A DNA stretch of 21,284 bases, from the sequence record ON470581. One strand, 5' to 3'. Both the position numbers and the translations under genes were made by a program. Below, piece by piece: positions 4,120 to 19,825 of the stretch (positions are counted from its first letter, which is position 1; each line of letters opens with the position of its first letter). The DNA comes from Escherichia phage vB_EcoS-606R9. Under the pieces are notes generated by a model. It was not told the origin of the DNA and did no database searches. It saw only the letters and a list, made by a program, of their open reading frames with translations.

Positions 4120-5214
4120 ATGAGCAGACCGGACTGGGGGGCGTTGCAGCAGGAGTATATTGCTGAATACACCCGCTCCGGTATATCTCCGGTGGCATGG
4201 TGTGAAGCAAGGGGACTGAATTACGCAACAGCCCGTCGTTACATCAAAAAAACTCCGAAAAATGCGCAGACAGAAATGTGCAAAACTGCGCAAAAAAGTG
4301 CGCAGAAAAAATCTGCGCAGACTGCACAAAAGCGGAACGAAAAATCTCAGGAAAAAAAGCCAGTATTCGATGCGGGCCTGAATGAGGGCGACGCGGAGGA
4401 ATTTTCGTTCTGTCCCGATGAATTCGGCATTTCTGACCAGCAGGCTAAGTTTGCGATGCTTGTTGCTCAGGGTAAAAAGCCGACAGAGGCGTACCGACTA
4501 GCCGGTTATGAGGGGCAAGGTGCGACAGCTAACAGCAACGCCAGTCGTATGCTTAGAAATGCCAGGGTTTTTCGCGCTATCAGCTACTTCCGCAATCAGT
4601 ACCAGAAACGCTATACCGCAGACCTGGATTTACTAGTGAGTCAGTTGATGGCTATTGTCCTGGCCGACCCCAATCAGCTTGCACAATTTCGCCGTGTTAA
4701 CTGCCGTTATTGCTGGGGCGAGAATCATCTCTACCAGTGGCGCGATATAGCAGAATTCGACAAGGCAGCGGCGCAGGCTTCCAGAGATGGCAAACCCGAA
4801 CCGGAATATGGAGGCCTCGGCTTTGTTGATAACGCCATACCCAATCCGGACTGCCCGAAGTGCTGCGGTGAGGGAACGGGACAGCTTTATATGGCTGATA
4901 CCACTCTGCTTGATGGGGATGCGCGGCAATTATATGCAGGGGCAAAATTCGGAAAATTCGGCGTTGAGATCCTGCTGGAGGATAAGGCTGCCGCCCGGCG
5001 TGAATTGTTGCGTTTGCTTTCTGCTGGCGGGGATTTATGTGCAGATAAGCGGCTACAGGAACTGGAAATTGAACGGCGCAGAATGGAAAACCAGAAGCTG
5101 CGCAAAGAGATCGAAACGGTGGAAGATAATGAACATCCCCAGCCTGTGGCGATCAATATTAATGTGGTTGATGCCAGAGTAAGGAGTGATGAAGATGATC
5201 TCTCCGACGCTTAA
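4120..5214 (+). CDS. Putative terminase small subunit (DNA-recognition component)
   Basis: Sits immediately upstream of, and overlaps, the large terminase gene; N-terminal HTH-like segment (GISPVAWCEARGLNYATARRYIKK), a Lys/Gln-rich low-complexity linker, Cys-rich segment (CRYCW...CPKCC), C-terminal coiled coil. Assigned by position and architecture. Confidence 0.5.
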   Translation: MSRPDWGALQQEYIAEYTRSGISPVAWCEARGLNYATARRYIKKTPKNAQTEMCKTAQKSAQKKSAQTAQKRNEKSQEKKPVFDAGLNEGDAEEFSFCPDEFGISDQQAKFAMLVAQGKKPTEAYRLAGYEGQGATANSNASRMLRNARVFRAISYFRNQYQKRYTADLDLLVSQLMAIVLADPNQLAQFRRVNCRYCWGENHLYQWRDIAEFDKAAAQASRDGKPEPEYGGLGFVDNAIPNPDCPKCCGEGTGQLYMADTTLLDGDARQLYAGAKFGKFGVEILLEDKAAARRELLRLLSAGGDLCADKRLQELEIERRRMENQKLRKEIETVEDNEHPQPVAININVVDARVRSDEDDLSDA

Positions 5215-11330: not shown

Positions 11331-11726
11331 ATGATCACTTACGTGACCTGTGATGACGTTGATAATGCGTTTGGGAACGCCTGGACGAGTGAGAACGCTA
11401 AAAATAAAGCTGTTTTAATGGCTAATGCCTGGCTTAATGGCTTCAACCTGAAAATTAACCCATCCCGTATTCCGGAAGAGGTAAAACTTGCGGGAGCATA
11501 TGCAGCCAGAATTGCCTCATTTGGTAAGTTGTTTCAGCAGAAAAATGATTCTGGCGTTGTTATCAGTAAAGCCGTGTCGGCTGACGGGGTCAGTGTATCG
11601 AAATCATTTTCTGAGTTGCCAGCAAACAGCACTGCATTGCTTGAACCCGATTTACAGCTTGCGATAGCACTGCTGAAACCGTACGGACTTAGTCGCTCAC
11701 AAGTCAGGGTTGTGAGGGGGGGATAA
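11331..11726 (+). CDS. Head completion / head-tail connector protein (putative, by position)
   Basis: 131-aa ORF, first of four tightly packed small genes (about 126-131 aa each) between capsid and major tail genes, with start/stop overlaps typical of head-tail joining genes. Confidence 0.4.
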   Translation: MITYVTCDDVDNAFGNAWTSENAKNKAVLMANAWLNGFNLKINPSRIPEEVKLAGAYAARIASFGKLFQQKNDSGVVISKAVSADGVSVSKSFSELPANSTALLEPDLQLAIALLKPYGLSRSQVRVVRGG

Positions 11727-12109
11727 TGGGGCTTCGTGAAGAGATTCAGTCAGAGGTTGCCGCTGCTTTTGATGAGGATTTAGCGGACGCCGTGAGTGAT
11801 TTTTCTGGTTATTACGTTACGCACCGGCACTGGGATCCTGTGACGGAAACTGGCGGCGAATCCACCGCAATCTATACCGGGCGAGGCGTGTTGACACGTT
11901 ATAAGCTGGGCAGAATTGATGGGATTAATATTTTGCATGGTGACCTTAAATTAACCGCTCTGGTATGCGAGGTTACGGATAAACCAGCTGTCGACCATAT
12001 TATTGAGATTTATGATCCTGTATCAAGGCAGTTACAACGATACGAGGTAATTACAGCAAGTTTAGATCCTTCCGCATCAGTTTACTCTATCCAGTTAAGG
12101 AGAGCGTAA
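11726..12109 (+). CDS. Head-tail joining protein (putative, by position)
   Basis: 127-aa ORF whose start overlaps the upstream stop (ATAATGG); position within the head-tail joining block. Confidence 0.4.
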   Translation: MGLREEIQSEVAAAFDEDLADAVSDFSGYYVTHRHWDPVTETGGESTAIYTGRGVLTRYKLGRIDGINILHGDLKLTALVCEVTDKPAVDHIIEIYDPVSRQLQRYEVITASLDPSASVYSIQLRRA

Positions 12110-12490
12110 ATGGCAAAGGCATGGGATATAGAACCGTCAATATTTGCCGGGATGATTGAGGAAGATGTAGGGCTGAAGATTCGCTACATCGCTATGCAGA
12201 TTCTTACTGCTATTGATATTGCTGCTCCGGTTGATACCGGACGTTTCAGAAATAACAACCTGGTGTCGTTACAGCATCCCGATTTTGGTATATCTGATAA
12301 CGTGGATCCGAACGGTACGATTGCTGTTCAGCGTGGGATCGGGGTTATTTCGAAAGCTGCAAATTACGGGGTTATTTATATCCAGAATAACCTTCCTTAT
12401 GCAGAGGCTCTTGAAAACGGTCATTCACAACAAGCGCCAACTGGCGTGTATGCCAACGCTTTTTATGGTGTTTTACAGGCTTACAAATGA
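12110..12490 (+). CDS. Tail component / neck protein (putative, by position)
   Basis: 126-aa ORF starting directly after the upstream stop; third gene of the head-tail joining block. Confidence 0.4.
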   Translation: MAKAWDIEPSIFAGMIEEDVGLKIRYIAMQILTAIDIAAPVDTGRFRNNNLVSLQHPDFGISDNVDPNGTIAVQRGIGVISKAANYGVIYIQNNLPYAEALENGHSQQAPTGVYANAFYGVLQAYK

Positions 12491-12879
12491 AGTTTACTGA
12501 AATCAGAAATACGGTTATTTCCAGAATGACGGCACAGACGATTATTGATGGAAAAGACGTATTGTATCCGAACGGGCCAACGTTCGATCCTTCCGGTAAG
12601 TTAATCTGGGCGCGGTTAAGTAATATTCCCGGGCAGGCTGGGGTTAATGAAATTGGCGCGGGGCCGGTTGTTTATCGCACGGGGATAATCATTATTCAGT
12701 TATTTGTCCCCGCAGGTTCTGGTTCAAAACTCATTACTGAGACAGCCGATAAATTGCGGGAACTGTTTGAGTTTCAGGATGACGATCGTCTCAGTTACCA
12801 GGCTGTTTCCTCAATAGCCGTCGGCGAAAAGAATGGCTGGTTCCAGCTTAATCTTCAAATTCCATATCGCGCGCTCTAG
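12487..12879 (+). CDS. Tail completion / tail terminator protein (putative, by position)
   Basis: 130-aa ORF overlapping the upstream stop (ATGA); immediately precedes the major tail gene, where lambda-like phages carry gpU-type tail terminators. Confidence 0.4.
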   Translation: MKFTEIRNTVISRMTAQTIIDGKDVLYPNGPTFDPSGKLIWARLSNIPGQAGVNEIGAGPVVYRTGIIIIQLFVPAGSGSKLITETADKLRELFEFQDDDRLSYQAVSSIAVGEKNGWFQLNLQIPYRAL

Positions 12880-12905: not shown

Positions 12906-13868
12906 GTGAGTTCAGGTGCAAAGGTTATCTCGGCATTTATCCGGGAGACAGTTGCAGGCACTACGCCAGCAAGTGGTGACTGGAGTTTATTAAAACGCAC
13001 AAGCTGGGGAGTAAAACCCACCCAGAATAAAGGCGAAAATAATGAGATTGGTGGCTCCCGGATGGCTCAGGGGGCGACGCCTGGCACTGTGGATGTCGGC
13101 GGTGATGTTGGTACCAAATTTCGCTGGGGTCAACATGATGATTTTCTTGCATCCTGTTTCGGCGCGGAATGGTCAGGCGATTCTCTGACAATGGGGAATG
13201 AGCGAATAACATTTTCTCTGGCGACCTATGCGTCCGATGTCGGAATTGCCTCTGTCGTCAGAGGAGCGCAGGTTGGCTCATGGAAAATGCAGATCCCTAA
13301 CGACGGCGATATTACAGCGACCGTAACCTTTGCCGGGCTGGGCTGGGAAACAAAGGCCGATGATACGAATTTTATCAAAGGCAAACCTGTGGATAGTGCA
13401 GGAAAGTTACGCTATTCGTTTAAGGAGGTTTCAGCAGTAAGCCTGAATGGTGTTGCCGGAGGTAACGGTTTTTGTATCGACAGTTTTGATATTCAGTTCG
13501 ATAACAAACTCCAGACACAGCGTTGTATCGGGACTGGCTCGCCTTATGCAGGAGCAAATATTCCGACTACTTTTACACCGTCCGGTACGGTGACGCTTTC
13601 ATGGTCTAAAGCCGCGTGGGAAATCTGGAGTAAAACACTGACTGGAGAAACAGTTCCGTTCAGCTTCACGCTTTCGAATGGAGAGGGGGCATACACTTTC
13701 AGTTTCCCGAAGGTTCAGGTGTCAGGTGAATGGCCTGATGGGGGTAATACTGACATTATCCAGGTTCAATTGAGCATTACCGCAGCAGATGAAGCACCTA
13801 CGATAACCAGAAAAAAATGCTCCCCGACTGCCGTGATCGCAAAAGCCAGTGCTGATGCGATTAGTTGA
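12906..13868 (+). CDS. Major tail (tube) protein (putative)
   Basis: 320-aa ORF with GTG start 12906, preceded by ATAGGAGG; Gly/Thr/Ser-rich beta-type composition; sits directly upstream of the G/G-T chaperone pair, as lambda V does. Confidence 0.6.
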   Translation: MSSGAKVISAFIRETVAGTTPASGDWSLLKRTSWGVKPTQNKGENNEIGGSRMAQGATPGTVDVGGDVGTKFRWGQHDDFLASCFGAEWSGDSLTMGNERITFSLATYASDVGIASVVRGAQVGSWKMQIPNDGDITATVTFAGLGWETKADDTNFIKGKPVDSAGKLRYSFKEVSAVSLNGVAGGNGFCIDSFDIQFDNKLQTQRCIGTGSPYAGANIPTTFTPSGTVTLSWSKAAWEIWSKTLTGETVPFSFTLSNGEGAYTFSFPKVQVSGEWPDGGNTDIIQVQLSITAADEAPTITRKKCSPTAVIAKASADAIS

Positions 13869-13880
13869 TTTTCCGTTATT

Positions 13881-13907
13881 CCCCCTGTGGTACTGCACTA
13901 CAGGGGG
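13881..13907 (+). promoter_or_regulatory. Hairpin upstream of the tail chaperone gene that includes its likely Shine-Dalgarno
   Basis: CCCCCTGT (13881-13888) pairs with ACAGGGGG (13900-13907), 8-bp stem and 11-nt loop, no U-tract. The GGGGGA at 13903-13908, the best SD for ATG 13917, lies in the 3' arm. Confidence 0.35.
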
Positions 13908-13916
13908 ACGCATTGA

Positions 13917-14378
13917 ATGAGGTTATGGATGTTTATTCTTAATCAGAAAATTATCATCGGTGGAGAACGCTGGTTTACGCCAATGAAGGACTTAAAACCT
14001 GTAGACGGGTTAAAACTGTTGGTGGCAAGCAGCGATAACGATCAGTATCGCTCCCGTAATGCATTAATCCGTCGTCACATTGAGAAAATGGATGCCAGTT
14101 TGCACGTCGGAACGAAGGAGTTTGATATTTCAAAGGTTTCCGAGGTAGATTCTGTTGATGATTTACTCATTGATAATGCTGCTCGTTATCTGCTGAAAGA
14201 CTGGAAAGGGGTTGGTGAACTGGTTAATGGTGCTGAGGTTGCACTGGAATATACGCCAGAACGAGGGATCGCGCTGCTTAAGCAGAATCCAGAGTTGTAC
14301 TGGCAGATCCTTGCAGAAGCAGCCAGCATCGCCCAGGGTAAAGAGCAGCAGAAGCAGGATACGATAAAAAAGCCATAG
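13917..14378 (+). CDS. G: Tail assembly chaperone (lambda gpG analogue)
   Basis: 153-aa acidic ORF between the major tail and tape measure genes, ending in the slippery heptamer A_AAA_AAG just before its TAG stop. Downstream ATGs at 13929 and 13983 are alternative starts. Confidence 0.65.
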   Translation: MRLWMFILNQKIIIGGERWFTPMKDLKPVDGLKLLVASSDNDQYRSRNALIRRHIEKMDASLHVGTKEFDISKVSEVDSVDDLLIDNAARYLLKDWKGVGELVNGAEVALEYTPERGIALLKQNPELYWQILAEAASIAQGKEQQKQDTIKKP

Positions 14379-14686
14379 CCGCCCAGCGGTGGTTATCGGA
14401 GTTCGGGGGAGAAAGGGGGGAAAAGGCAAGATGGAAGCGAGAAAAACTCAGGTTGCCACCGATACCGGAACCAGAAATAGACCCGGTGCTTAAGGAATTG
14501 TTGTACGCCTATTCGGTAATATCCCGTGCCCGACGTTATGCTGGAATGACCGGGGTGCCTTTGCCTTTATCTCTGACAGAGATAAATGAATATTTAGCCA
14601 CTCATCCGGTATTGATTGAGCGCGATGAGTTTGAAGCAGTGATCTTTGCACTGGATGACCAGTATTTTCAGGATCAGTGTGTGTAG
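13917..14686 (+). CDS. GT: Tail assembly chaperone G-T fusion made by programmed -1 ribosomal frameshift (predicted)
   Basis: The -1 frame relative to G is open from 14342 to the stop at 14684-14686; the slippery site A_AAA_AAG (14366-14372) lies in the overlap 2 codons before the G stop. Predicted fusion about 256 aa. The conserved G/G-T arrangement of lambda-like tails is established knowledge. Confidence 0.6.
14366..14372 (+). promoter_or_regulatory. -1 programmed frameshift slippery heptamer A_AAA_AAG
   Basis: In the G frame the codons are AAA (14367-14369) and AAG (14370-14372), preceded by A at 14366; this is the same heptamer as the E. coli dnaX frameshift site. Confidence 0.6.
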
Positions 14687-14810
14687 TTGTTAATTACGTA
14701 CACTCTGTTACAGAGATGTGATGGTGTCTTTAATTAAATCGATGATGCTCCTGGAGAAAAGCATTGCGTGGCCTCGTAATCGCTATATCTACTATTATGT
14801 CGCCTGAAAC

Positions 14811-14838
14811 CCACTTCGGTGGGCTTTTTGTTGTCTGG
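14811..14838 (+). terminator. Terminator-like hairpin just upstream of the tape measure gene
   Basis: CCCAC-TTCG-GTGGG (5-bp stem, UUCG tetraloop) followed by CTTTTTGTTGT; lies in the 163-nt spacer between the G-T stop (14686) and the tape measure start (14850). Confidence 0.45.
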
Positions 14839-14849
14839 AGTTTTAATAA

Positions 14850-17348
14850 ATGGCAGAGCAAACCTCGCGTCTCGCAATAATTATTGATAGCACTGGAGCA
14901 AAAAATAATGCTGACAATCTGACCTCCTCATTAGTCAAAATGACGCAGGCCGGGGAAACTGCTGCAAATAGCGCAGGGAAAGTGACTAAGGCAACAGAAG
15001 ATGAGAAGAACGCGCTCGCAAAATTAAAAGTAGCTATTGATCCAGTTGGTGCCGCAATTGATACTGTCGGTCGACGCTATTCTGAATTAAAGAAATTTTT
15101 CGATAAAGGGCTTATTGATAAAGAAGAATATGAATTTCTTGTCCGTAAACTTAATGAAACCACAGAGGAATTGAGCGGGGTTGCGCAAGCGCAGAGAGAA
15201 GCCGAGAAGGCCGGAAAACTTGCTGCCGCCCAGCAGGAAGCGCAGGCTCAGGCCTTTCAAAGAATGCTGGACAAGATCGACCCTCTGGCTGCGGCGCTAA
15301 GAAATCTTGAACAACAGCAGGATGAACTTAATGCTGCGTTTGCATCCGGGAAAATAAATGGTTCTCAGTTTGAGAATTATAGCCGAAAAATACAGGAAAC
15401 ACGGCGAGAGCTTACCGGAGAGGCTCAGGCAGAGCGAGAAGCAGCAAAAGCGCATGATGAACAGGTTGCTGCTTTGCAACGTCTGATTGCTCAACTTGAC
15501 CCTGTCGGAACTGCTTTTAATCGTCTGGTAGAACAACAGAAACAGCTCAATGAAGCAAAAGCTAAGGGGATGCTCTCTCCTGAAATGTATGAGGAACTTT
15601 CTGGAAAACTTCGTGCTATGCGGAGTGAGCTTGAGGTTACTCAATCTCAATTAAGCAAAACCGGAATGTCGGCAAAACAAACGGCTTTTGCTATGCGCAT
15701 GTTGCCTGCACAAATGACGGATATTGTTGTTGGGTTGTCCACTGGTCAGTCGCCTTTTATGGTGTTAATGCAGCAGGGCGGCCAGCTAAAAGATATGTTC
15801 GGTGGGATTGGCCCGGCGATCAAAGGTGTTGGTTCTTATGTGCTGGGATTAATTAATCCTTTTACCCTGGCCGCAGCAGCCGTTGGCGTCTTAGGGCTGG
15901 CTTACTATAAAGGCTCTCAGGAGCAGGACGAATTTAATAAATCTCTTATTCTTACCGGAAATCAGTTGGGGACAACCAGCGGGCAATTGGCCGATATAGC
16001 TCAACGTGCCGGGAATGCGGCTGATTCGACAACTGGCGCTGCGGCGGCAGTATTAAACCAGCTTGTGCGTTCGGGAAAGGTAGCGAGCAGTTCGCTGGAG
16101 CAAGTGACGACAGCGATAGTAAAAACGAGCGAAGTAACAGGAATATCAACCGAACAACTGGTTAATGACTTCAATGAAATTGCAAAGGATCCTGTCAGTG
16201 CCATATCAAAACTTAATGATCAGTACCATTTTCTGACAATTGCGACTTATAACCAGATTAAGGCGCTACAGGATGAAGGGAACCAGCAGGAGGCCGCCCG
16301 CATTGCGACAGAAGCATACTCATCCTCAATGATCCAGCGCACCAACCAGATTAAAGAAAATCTTGGTTATCTTGAGACTGCATGGAAAGCTGTCGCAGAC
16401 TCCGCAAAATGGGCATGGGATTCCATGCTGGACATTGGCCGTGAGGCCTCCCTTGATCAAAAAATCTCAGATGTTCTCCGTCAAATTGATGAAATAGAAA
16501 AAAATACCCGACCCGGAGTTTTCGGGTTAGGTGGCATTGGAGATGGCGGAGCTCAAAATAAAAGGCTGGCACGATTAAAGCAGCAATTGGGCGTACTTCA
16601 AGCAGAAAAAATTGCTCAGGACGTCCTAAATTCATCAATAAACGATTACAACAAGCGACAACAGGAAGGAATTGAACTCAGACAGAGAGCAGATGCCTTT
16701 TCAAAACAATATCAGACCCGGGAGCAGCAGAGAGCTAGTGAACTTGCAAAACTGGAAAAGCTAAAGAGTCAGTATTCAAAGGAAGAATATAATAATTTTA
16801 TCGCTCAAATAAATGAGCGTTATAAAGATCCAAAGCAACCAAAGGCGAAAGGTTATTCGGATGATGCTGCCCAACGAATGATTGATCATCTGAATCAACA
16901 GAATGCGTTACTAAGTTCACAAACTGAATTAACCGTTAAATTAAGTTCCTCTGAACAGGAACTGGTTAAGTGGCGTCAGCAGATTGCCGACCTGGAGTCA
17001 CGACCGTCATCGAAATTAACCCAGGATCAGAAATCGCTTCTCTTACACCGGGAAGAAATAACCGCGTTGATGGAGAAAAATGTTGCGATTGAAAAAAATA
17101 ACAGGCTAATCAAGGAATCCGCCGAAATAGCTGCATGGCGTGATTTATTGCAGGCTTCGATTGATAATCGTCAACAGGGGTATGATATTCAGATTGCTGG
17201 TTATGGGGTTGGCGATAAAAATCAGCAACGCCAGCAGGAATTACTGCGGATTGAACGTGAATATAACAATCAGCGTCTGCAACTTGAACGTGACTATGCA
17301 GATAAATCCCGTGGGATGTCAAATCATGTTTTTCAGGAGAAAATGTAG
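14850..17348 (+). CDS. H: Tail tape measure protein, N-terminal 832 codons ending at an in-frame TAG
   Basis: Long Ala/Gln/Glu-rich coiled-coil ORF with an internal hydrophobic glycine-rich segment, directly after G/G-T and before the M, L, K, I, J homologues. The ORF ends at TAG 17346-17348, but the same frame stays open for a further 245 codons to 18083. Confidence 0.75.
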
Positions 17349-18083
17349 GCTCTGAATGATGCTCTGGAACGAGAAAAAGAAATTGTCAGACAGAAAAACG
17401 AGCAGCTCGATATTCAGGCAGGAGACTGGGTTAGTGGTGCCTCCCAGGGATTCAATAACTGGCTGGATGACACTAAGGATATCAGTGAGCAGATAAAATC
17501 AACCACGACTCAGATGTTTGATGGAATGACCGATGCGCTGGGTGATTTTGTCACGACAGGCAAGGCAAATTTTCGTTCTTTCGCTACTTCCGTGATTTCG
17601 GATCTTAGTCGAATAGCATTAAAGGCTTCAATTACTGGGATTTTCGACAGCATTAGTAACAGTTCTTCGGGGGGGATTTTAGGAACTATCGGGAGTGCTA
17701 TTAGTAAATTTATTCCGAATGCAAAGGGCGGTGTTTATGAGTCTCCGTCATTGAACACGTATTCGAACGGTATTTATGATTCCCCGCAATTTTTTGCTTT
17801 TGCAAAAGGGGCTGGTGTTTTTGGTGAGGCTGGTCCGGAAGCCATTATGCCATTAACACGAACATCCGATGGTTCTCTTGGTGTCAGAGCTATTAATAGT
17901 AAAAGTGGTAATGGAGGCGGAGATATTACCTATGCCCCTGTATACCAAATCACTATTCAAAATGACGGCCAGAATGGAGAGATTGGCCCTCAGGCAATAA
18001 AAGCACTTATGGGGATGGTTGATCAGCGGGTGCAGGGCAATCTGTTAAATATGCGACGTGATGGGGGAATGTTAAGTGGCTAA
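17349..18083 (+). CDS. H: Tail tape measure protein, C-terminal segment downstream of the in-frame TAG (same frame, no independent start signal seen)
   Basis: Frame is continuous with 14850..17348 (both coordinates are multiples of 3); encodes ...MFDGMTDALGDFVTTGKANFRSFATSVISDLSRIALKA..., which resembles the lambda gpH C-terminal region from memory. First ATG is at 17514 with no obvious SD. The stop overlaps the M start. Confidence 0.6.
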   Translation, partial: ALNDALEREKEIVRQKNEQLDIQAGDWVSGASQGFNNWLDDTKDISEQIKSTTTQMFDGMTDALGDFVTTGKANFRSFATSVISDLSRIALKASITGIFDSISNSSSGGILGTIGSAISKFIPNAKGGVYESPSLNTYSNGIYDSPQFFAFAKGAGVFGEAGPEAIMPLTRTSDGSLGVRAINSKSGNGGGDITYAPVYQITIQNDGQNGEIGPQAIKALMGMVDQRVQGNLLNMRRDGGMLSG

Positions 18084-19117: not shown

Positions 19118-19825
19118 ATGACAGNNNNNNNNNNNNNNNNNNNNNNNNNNNNNNNNNNNNNNTCGGAAGGGGAAAGATATTTTCCCTGCGTGAATATCTC
19201 CGGTGAGCCGGAGGAGTATTTCCGGATGTCGCCGGAGGACTGGCTGCGGGCAGAGATGCAGGGTGAGATTGTGGCGCTGGTCCACAGCCACCCCGGTGGT
19301 ATGCCCTGGCTGAGTGAGACCGACCGGCGGCTGCAGGTGCAGAGTGATTTGCCGTGGTGGCTGGTTTGCCGGGGAGCGATTCACAAGTTCCGCTGTGTGC
19401 CACATCTTTCCGGGCGGCGCTTTGAGCACGGGGTGACGGACTGTTACACGCTGTTCCGGGATGCTTACCATCTGGCGGGGATTGAGATGCCGGATTTTCA
19501 TCGCGAGGATGACTGGTGGCGTAACGGTCAGAATCTCTATCTGGATAATCTGGAGGCCACAGGGCTATATCAGGTGCCGTTGTCAGCGGCGCAGCCGGGC
19601 GATGTGCTGCTGTGCTGTTTTGGTTCATCGGTGCCGAATCATGCCGCCATTTACTGTGGTGACAGCGAGCTGCTGCACCATATTCCTGAACAACTGAGTA
19701 AACGAGAGAGGTACACCGACAAATGGCAGCGACGCACACACTCCCTCTGGCGTCACCGGGCATGGCACGCATCTGCCTTTACGGGGATTTGCAACGATTT
19801 GGCCGCCGCATCGACCTTCGAGTGA
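19118..19825 (+). CDS. K: Tail tip assembly protein K (JAB/MPN plus NlpC/P60-like), interrupted near the N-terminus by an assembly gap
   Basis: JAMM-type motif HSHPGGMPWLSETD and an NlpC/P60-like Cys/His region (GVTDCYTLFRDAYH ... PNHAAIY); the last 103 nt overlap gene I, as lambda K/I do. ATG 19118 is 3 nt after the L stop; ATG 19226 would give a 199-aa product and is an alternative start. The true length of the N-gap at 19125-19162 is unknown. Confidence 0.8.
   Translation: MTXXXXXXXXXXXXXSEGERYFPCVNISGEPEEYFRMSPEDWLRAEMQGEIVALVHSHPGGMPWLSETDRRLQVQSDLPWWLVCRGAIHKFRCVPHLSGRRFEHGVTDCYTLFRDAYHLAGIEMPDFHREDDWWRNGQNLYLDNLEATGLYQVPLSAAQPGDVLLCCFGSSVPNHAAIYCGDSELLHHIPEQLSKRERYTDKWQRRTHSLWRHRAWHASAFTGICNDLAAASTFE
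19125..19162. other. Assembly gap (run of 38 N)
   Basis: Literal N characters in the sequence; a scaffolding or masked gap, not biology. Confidence 0.99.

Follow-up and report, generated by a model that had tools for sequence, protein, structure and literature searches.

A probable −1 ribosomal frameshift of the G/GT type, conserved in the ydaY family of phage tail assembly chaperones

Introduction

In the tail gene region of the Escherichia phage vB_EcoS-606R9 (sequence record ON470581) the gene ydaY overlaps with a second, shorter reading frame, and the question is how this second frame is translated. It can be a gene with a start of its own, or it can be reached by ribosomes that slip back one base near the end of ydaY and continue into a longer fusion protein. 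The latter arrangement is known from genes G and T of phage lambda (Levin, Hendrix & Casjens 1993; Xu, Hendrix & Duda 2004, 2013, 2014), which are compared here in the form in which they are summarised in PMC5009743. The G/GT type is taken as defined by Xu, Hendrix & Duda 2004: two reading frames that overlap, placed after the tube gene and ahead of the tape-measure gene, the second of them in the −1 frame and without a conserved start of its own. The original prediction for the locus was that it is a case of this conserved tail chaperone recoding. We followed it up in a window of 21,284 nucleotides, which is the whole stretch of DNA that was analysed and in which position 1 is the first letter.

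Results and Discussion

The DNA of the window comes from a Rac-like siphovirus prophage of E. coli and represents its late (structural) region, in which the gene order is tail terminator, tube, G, T in the −1 frame, and tape measure. The tail terminator is found at 12487-12879 (PF13554). The major tail, or tube, gene at 12906..13868 on the + strand (PF18906 Phage_tube_2, E 1.4e-31) is situated directly upstream of G, and the next gene downstream of T is the tape-measure gene at 14850..18083, also on the + strand (PF06791 TMP_2, E 6.9e-82). G and T are the two overlapping reading frames between the tube and the tape-measure genes, as in the definition of the type. The same DNA is found in other records. 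Escherichia phage vB_EcoS-611R4 (ON470587) is 100% identical across the tested segment, with coordinates equal to those of the window, and a Salmonella-phage record also has the segment. Positions 13800-14900 are represented in 1075 of the 5426 complete E. coli genomes, and 693 of those have most of the segment. The Rac remnant of strain K-12 keeps it from about position 14027 onward, with ydaY followed by the ynaA tape-measure fragment.

Gene G, a member of the ydaY family, occupies 13929..14378 on the + strand, and its profile match and its position point to the 0-frame tail assembly chaperone. The protein is 149 aa long when read from the ATG at 13929, and 153 aa if the in-frame ATG upstream, at 13917, is used. 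The start at 13929 is the one annotated in GenBank (13929-14378), and the corresponding M-[LF]-I-[IL] is the start in most homologues. Searched alone, G matches PHROG 313, 'Tail assembly chaperone', with E 8.2e-47 and 161 bits over positions 13-149 of the 258 in the profile, and its homologues carry the precomputed Pfam family PF27119. The structure was less informative: an AlphaFold2 model of G from an 18-sequence alignment had a mean pLDDT of 47, too low to look for similar folds. When the PDB was searched with profiles from the G and T alignments, nothing significant came up, and no NCBIfam model matched either the G or the T part.

In the 0 frame, G ends with GAT ACG ATA AAA AAG CCA TAG. 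As read from the sequence and from its conservation, the slippery heptamer A_AAA_AAG is at 14366..14372 (+ strand), in X_XXY_YYZ register with the G frame. It supplies the codons AAA (14367) and AAG (14370), which are followed by CCA and by the TAG stop of G at 14376..14378 (+ strand), one codon past the heptamer. The −1 frame is open already 8 codons before the heptamer, past a TAA at 14339-41, so that the overlap zone upstream of the site is 14342..14365 (+ strand); relatives differ in the length of this opening. The original prediction gave the same heptamer, the same opening at 14342 and the same stop, and all three were confirmed by reading and translation of the DNA. So was its claim that the shifted frame runs through a purine-rich stretch to 14686, and the predicted junction, DTIKK followed by AIAAQRW, agrees with the translation of both frames.

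The T segment, 14372..14686 on the + strand, is what would be coded in the −1 frame after the slip. It consists of 104 codons, beginning with AIAAQRW and ending with QDQCV, and a TAG at 14684-86. The predicted G-T fusion has 252 aa with the start at 13929 and 256 aa with that at 13917. When the 256-aa fusion was made in silico, the match to PHROG 313 extended to positions 13-245 of 258 and the score rose to 176.6 bits (E 1.4e-51); joining the frames thus both lengthens and improves the match, which implies that the profile already includes fused G-T members. The C-terminal 75 aa of T also match PHROG 1189 (E 6e-36). The similarity of T to the Pfam family PF23812 (Phage_TAC_18), 20.2-20.3 bits and E 6e-4 against a gathering threshold of 27 bits, is a weak resemblance below membership, and among ten diverse T sequences three match this family at E ≤ 0.01.

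The purine-rich tract inside T, GGGGGAGAAAGGGGGGAAAAGG, is situated at 14405..14426 on the + strand and encodes a conserved F-G-G-E-x-G-E-K-A motif. Its G-run varies in length in a few relatives, with G7 in one locus (L041) and G5 in another (L059), where T is truncated. Behind the tract a short +1-frame reading frame begins with an ATG at 14431, and we do not consider it to be a gene. This ATG is formed by AGA-TGG, which is AAG-TGG in most other lineages, and it is therefore not conserved.

A heptamer such as this one is not rare in itself. The string occurs 8 times on both strands of the window, as compared to 6.0 ± 2.6 times in shuffled sequences, so there is no enrichment, and a second in-register A_AAA_AAG, at 4353, leads into a −1 frame of only 10 codons. 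Approximately 30 in-register X_XXY_YYZ heptamers are found in the + strand reading frames, and the one at G alone opens into a long −1 frame (106 codons) other than that of the following gene. The other long −1 frame in the scan, behind G_GGG_GGA at 11717, belongs to the next gene (11726-12109), which has its Shine-Dalgarno region in the G-run. The significance of the heptamer comes from its register, position and conservation, and not from the frequency of the string. With the codon usage of the window, the probability that I/V-K-K is written NNA AAA AAG is about 0.035 for each independent lineage, and the slip site has fixed ATA and GTA although both are minority codons. Since E. coli genes strongly avoid A_AAA_AAG in phase (z = −10.1; PMC4066793), its fixation at this locus implies selection.

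For the comparison between relatives we fetched 174 loci from the homologues of G, which contained 82 unique regions of 190 nt around the site. The loci span seven or more enterobacterial genera, with hosts in Escherichia/Shigella, Citrobacter, Klebsiella, Raoultella, Dryocola, Entomohabitans and Providencia, and include viral contigs; the identity of G ranges from 49 to 100%. At the homologous Lys-Lys codons all 174 loci carry a slippery heptamer in register, and in all of them the T frame is −1 relative to G. The heptamer is A_AAA_AAG in 173 of them, and in the remaining one, from Raoultella (L010), it is G_GGA_AAG, the heptamer of lambda. Its three synonymous positions are almost invariant, as compared to a variability of about 27% at third positions nearby.

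The stop of the 0 frame moves from relative to relative, and the heptamer and the −1-frame protein stay fixed. Among the unique sequences, 65 have the stop 3 nt past the heptamer (as does one more, with GGGAAAG), 12 have it at 21 nt and 4 at 105 nt. In these four the TAG has become TTG and G gains a low-complexity tail of 34 residues, and the −1-frame protein is still conserved. It had been predicted that the site is placed two codons before the stop of the chaperone gene; this describes the present lineage well, but not the family.

More distant relatives were found by tblastn with T, which gave matches in Klebsiella, Erwinia, Pseudomonas and Acinetobacter phages. In the Pseudomonas phages phiPSA1 and Aurca01 the homologous site reads G_GAA_AAG, with T in the −1 frame, and Erwinia phage Gungnir39 has C_GCA_AAG, directly followed by TAA, also with T in the −1 frame. 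Both of these heptamers are non-canonical, and the sites were located by reading the DNA and from the frame of the tblastn matches. It is conceivable, if rather doubtful, that the recoding signal turns over at the homologous Lys codon within this chaperone family, the non-canonical forms of the distant relatives included. If this were true, G_GAA_AAG and C_GCA_AAG would imply slippage of a single tRNA, on the A_AAG tetramer or in the P site, and the slippage in the Erwinia phage is possibly driven by the adjacent stop codon.

Taken together, gene order, the match to PHROG 313, the presence of slip sites at 174 of 174 loci and a switch in codon periodicity at the heptamer (see below) support the predicted tail chaperone recoding, and the site is very probably a programmed −1 ribosomal frameshift of the phage G/GT type. 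From its anatomy, register, conservation and coding signature we infer the slip itself, its rate and the roles of the two proteins. Most ribosomes translating 13929-14378 would stop at the TAG at 14376 and release G (149 aa). A minority would slip back one base with AAA (14367) in the P site and AAG (14370) in the A site, and both the peptidyl- and the aminoacyl-tRNA-Lys would re-pair with A_AA and A_AA in a tandem −1 slip. The slipped ribosomes would then read GCC at 14372 and stay in the −1 frame to 14686, giving the 252-aa G-T protein. If the two proteins act as their lambda counterparts do, the tape-measure protein would be coated by G together with the G part of GT, the tube protein would be brought in by the T part, and the slip frequency would fix the GT:G ratio at a low value. 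The definition of the type further includes that the fusion is made in such a small, constant proportion, that tail assembly depends on it and that the virion contains neither of the two proteins.

The same fusion could be made in another way. The six A's at 14366-14371 might cause the RNA polymerase to add one A, and mRNAs with the longer run would encode G-T directly. One added A gives an identical protein (ATA AAA AAA GCC and onward), and a junction peptide or a reporter alone can therefore not separate the two routes. In addition, a Providencia protein record (P0025) shows that a run that is one base longer gives the fusion product. It is an in-frame fusion with the junction ETIKK-VIEAQKW, exactly as predicted, and in this it also counts for the G/GT frameshift; another Providencia genome (L011) has the two-frame form. 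Efficient transcriptional slippage in bacteria needs longer runs, though, of about 9 or more. Furthermore, the site is kept in relatives with only 3-4 A's, as G_GGA_AAG in the Raoultella locus and in the Acinetobacter phage vB_AbaS_TRS1, as G_GAA_AAG in the Pseudomonas phages and as C_GCA_AAG in the Erwinia phage. These variants retain the A_AAG lysine slip without a long A-run, which favours ribosomal over transcriptional slippage. The X_XXY_YYZ register and the terminal G are also conserved, features that are relevant to a slipping ribosome but irrelevant to a slipping polymerase. We consider slippage of the polymerase improbable, and ribosomal frameshifting the better explanation of the site.

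The codon positions show where each of the two frames is used as protein. Upstream of the heptamer the variability at the three positions of the 0 frame is 0.03/0.06/0.28. Beginning with the heptamer, the −1 frame has the corresponding pattern, with 0.08/0.09/0.26, and this applies also to the 80 nt ahead of the first candidate start of T. The heptamer is thus the exact point at which the high third-position variability leaves the 0 frame and appears in the −1 frame, and both frames are under purifying selection. From the first codon after the slip, the N-terminus of T is conserved across genera as A-I-[AE]-A-Q-[RK]-W-L-x-E-F-[GA]-G-E-x-G-[ED]-K-A-[RK]-W.

This conservation bears on the possibility that G and T are two independent genes, with T translated from the TTG at 14453 or the GTG at 14486 and the heptamer being incidental. 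It is how the locus appears in GenBank and RefSeq, where a separate 'hypothetical protein' is given at 14486-14686; PHROG 1189 is built from such stand-alone reading frames, and the alignment to Pfam PF23812 covers only the C-terminal 70 aa of T. However, the TTG (+87 from the heptamer) is present in 18 of 81 unique sequences and the GTG (+120) in 19, exclusively in the E. coli lineage, so that each is missing in 62-63 of the 81. A recognisable Shine-Dalgarno sequence at proper spacing was not found for either of them. The 29 codons before the TTG are conserved as protein, with third-position variability following the −1 frame, and the heptamer is invariant over lineages with otherwise diverged synonymous sites. 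Independent translation from the TTG at 14453, which the original prediction had named as an observation that would speak against it, is thus not supported, and two separate genes are a highly improbable explanation. T does not have a conserved start of its own, as expected for the second frame of a G/GT pair that is reached by frameshifting.

In the window an amber codon at 17346-48 interrupts the tape-measure gene, marked 'internal stop' in the PGAP annotation, and it is a change from CAG to TAG when compared to two other strains. With such a tape-measure gene in this prophage copy, the chaperone system and its recoding may no longer be under selection in this particular genome. The idea that the entire layout is functionless, one ancestral chaperone frame split by a one-base deletion in a defective prophage, is hardly credible, since this amber codon, the evident remnant in K-12 and the T frames truncated by homopolymer indels in a few relatives (L043, L045 and L059) would agree with it, but the two frames and the slip site are found at all 174 loci, in many genera and in records of isolated or induced phages, selection is seen on both frames, and in-frame versions are rare (P0001 and P0025).

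Two candidate stimulatory elements were seen near the heptamer. Upstream, at a distance of 6 nt, the sequence contains a Shine-Dalgarno-like AGGA (14356..14359, + strand), which may be a weak stimulator. AGGA or AGGAG is present in most relatives and missing in Providencia, and the conserved Q-[DE]-T codons confound this pattern. Downstream, a hairpin of 11 bp plus 2 is predicted at 14373..14399 (+ strand) in the fold of 14373-14452, abutting the 3' side of the heptamer. The hairpin dominates the fold of the first 45 nt after the heptamer, which has about −14.7 kcal/mol in E. coli-type sequences. The 80-nt segment as a whole has a fold z-score of −0.03, which is no better than its shuffles. 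The hairpin is not conserved in the Citrobacter, Klebsiella and Providencia lineages, the folds outside the E. coli type being different or weak, and no common hairpin was found among folds of 14 diverse lineages, for which reason a conserved downstream RNA stimulator was rejected. There was also no Rfam family anywhere in the window. The predicted hairpin seems to be specific to its lineage and at most a modest stimulator. It is conceivable that in the E. coli lineage the G:GT ratio might be tuned by two features peculiar to it, the stop one codon downstream and the abutting hairpin. The heptamer appears to be the sole conserved recoding element, as in lambda.

We expect slipping to be infrequent, somewhere between a fraction of a per cent and a few per cent. 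In E. coli reporters A_AAA_AAG gave 0.29% frameshifting without a stimulator, 4.3% with the IS911 stimulators and 39% with the IS3 pseudoknot, and G_GGA_AAG was almost equally slippery, with 0.28, 3.8 and 43% in the same three settings (PMC4066793 Table S3). With the bare heptamer at about 0.3% in one reporter context, the rate at this locus could be below the few per cent of lambda.

The main value of the finding is in the annotation. In GenBank and RefSeq the locus is given as 'protein YdaY', often with an internal start and 119 aa long, and a separate 'hypothetical protein' of 66 aa, and ribosomal slippage is not marked. In the literature we found nothing that ties ydaY to frameshifting or to a chaperone role, and no proteomic or reporter data on the fusion protein of the family. 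Judging from the sequences, this is very probably a conserved −1 frameshift of the G/GT kind which was previously unannotated in the ydaY family; ydaY would become tail assembly chaperone G, and the hypothetical reading frame its T extension. No concept is changed by this, since G/GT frameshifting is textbook phage biology. The family is also a clean natural series of slip-site variants, and can be used for studying how the G:GT ratio is set.

Comparison with known systems

Frameshifting in dnaX needs a Shine-Dalgarno-like element upstream and a strong stem-loop downstream, and it is a very frequent shift into a frame that stops almost at once, which gives a shorter product. Here the shifted frame instead adds 104 residues, and a conserved stimulator was not found. 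The Shine-Dalgarno-like element of the dnaX cassette is placed about 10 nt upstream of the heptamer, as compared to the 6 nt of the AGGA described above with its conserved codons, and where dnaX has a conserved strong stem-loop about 6 nt downstream, there is here the lineage-specific hairpin. The original prediction called the site identical to that of dnaX. This is correct for the heptamer, but it does not extend to the rest of the cassette. What the two have in common is A_AAA_AAG, on which the single E. coli tRNA-Lys pairs weakly with AAG (PMC5009743).

A parallel in function is the cluster A_AAA_AAG_25 of Sharma et al. 2014, which is ECs1801, the tail assembly chaperone of the Sakai prophage Sp9 (PMC4066793 Table S4). 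Its −1 frameshifting was 'safely inferred' from conservation in E. coli prophages (PMC4066793), and its heptamer is the one found here and its role the one proposed here. We considered whether the two are the same and rejected it, as ECs1801 belongs to an unrelated protein family (BLASTP E = 1.0). The ydaY family itself is absent from the cluster list of that study (PMC4066793 Table S4).

The comparison with lambda G/T, which the original prediction had suggested, showed likeness in position and in the proposed mechanism, but sequence similarity was not detectable by BLASTP: neither protein gave an alignment with E ≤ 100 to lambda G or T, and in the Pfam search no lambda-G or lambda-T family was matched. 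In both phages a pair of overlapping reading frames comes after the major tail gene and before the tape-measure gene, the second frame is −1, an X_XXY_YYZ heptamer ending in A_AAG is found near the end of G, and the fusion is longer than G. In lambda the tape-measure protein is the binding partner of the G part, and the tube protein that of the T part (PMC5009743). The proteins are of similar size, 140 and 279 aa in lambda and 149 and 252 aa here. The lambda heptamer is G_GGA_AAG, which among the relatives is found in the Raoultella locus, as compared to A_AAA_AAG here. The 0-frame stop follows the site after one codon here and after five intervening codons in lambda, and T and the tape-measure gene are separated by a spacer of 163 nt, whereas they overlap in lambda.

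The Acinetobacter phage vB_AbaS_TRS1 has a chaperone (TRS1_18/TRS1_19) that is annotated as a joined CDS with ribosomal slippage. The site differs, it is a G_GGA_AAG in register, at another place in the alignment and 79 nt before the stop of G. The T proteins of the two phages are homologous, with approximately 35% identity, and the gene order is the same.

Start of G and the upstream stem-loop

Fold prediction places a 12-bp stem-loop (13880-13908) between the stop of the tube gene (12906-13868) and the start of G, the tail assembly chaperone gene of the ydaY family. The structure is very stable, −22 kcal/mol with a z-score of −3.7 against shuffled sequences, and no T-run follows it. One possible role is in mRNA stability or attenuation, raising the expression of the tube gene compared to the genes downstream. 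The GGGGGA that would serve as Shine-Dalgarno sequence for the upstream ATG at 13917 lies in the 3' arm of the stem-loop, which favours the ATG at 13929 as the real start of G.

RefSeq/PGAP instead begins ydaY at an internal ATG, giving 119 aa (14019-14378 in the window; loci L180 and L181), and this call is applied even to genomes with the intact, full 149-aa gene. The short call is modelled on the truncated Rac remnant of K-12, in which the frameshift cassette and the frame of T, the segment that would be read after the −1 slip, are still present.

The T/tape-measure spacer and the tape-measure gene

The spacer from the stop of T to the start of the tape-measure gene (14687-14849) is 163 nt long and holds a 28-aa ORF (14721-14807, MVSLIKSMMLLEKSIAWPRNRYIYYYVA), followed on its 3' side by a terminator-like hairpin (14810-14823) with a T-run. 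Relatives have between 38 and about 545 nt here, which gives the spacer the look of a variable insertion ('moron') site within the tail operon.

The tape-measure gene (14850-18083) contains one in-frame amber codon, TAG at 17346-17348, where strains F5505-C1 and ATCC 43896 have CAG. The gene is thereby cut into 14850-17348 and 17514-18083, and an identical copy is annotated by PGAP as a pseudogene ('internal stop'). Barring amber suppression, the prophage copy in the window is probably tail-defective. A run of 38 N at 19125-19162, in the distal tail-gene region, represents masked bases or an assembly gap.

Candidate slip sites and the integrity of T

A second in-register A_AAA_AAG is found at 4353-4359, within the ORF 4120-5214; slipping there would give a truncated product, since the −1 frame ends after 10 codons.

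A few of the relatives (L041, L043, L045 and L059) differ in the length of the G-runs in the purine tract (14405-14426 in the window), G5 or G7 as compared to G6, or carry other indels by which T is truncated, in the tract or downstream of it; these differences reflect either homopolymer sequencing errors or the decay of individual prophages.

A canonical heptamer is lacking at the homologous site in Erwinia phage Gungnir39 (L176, 1190-1205), which has C_GCA_AAG_TAA, and in the Pseudomonas phages L174 and L177, which have G_GAA_AAG about 63 nt before the stop of G. In all three, T still lies in the −1 frame and lacks a separate start at the junction, which makes these sites candidates for tetramer or stop-adjacent slippage.
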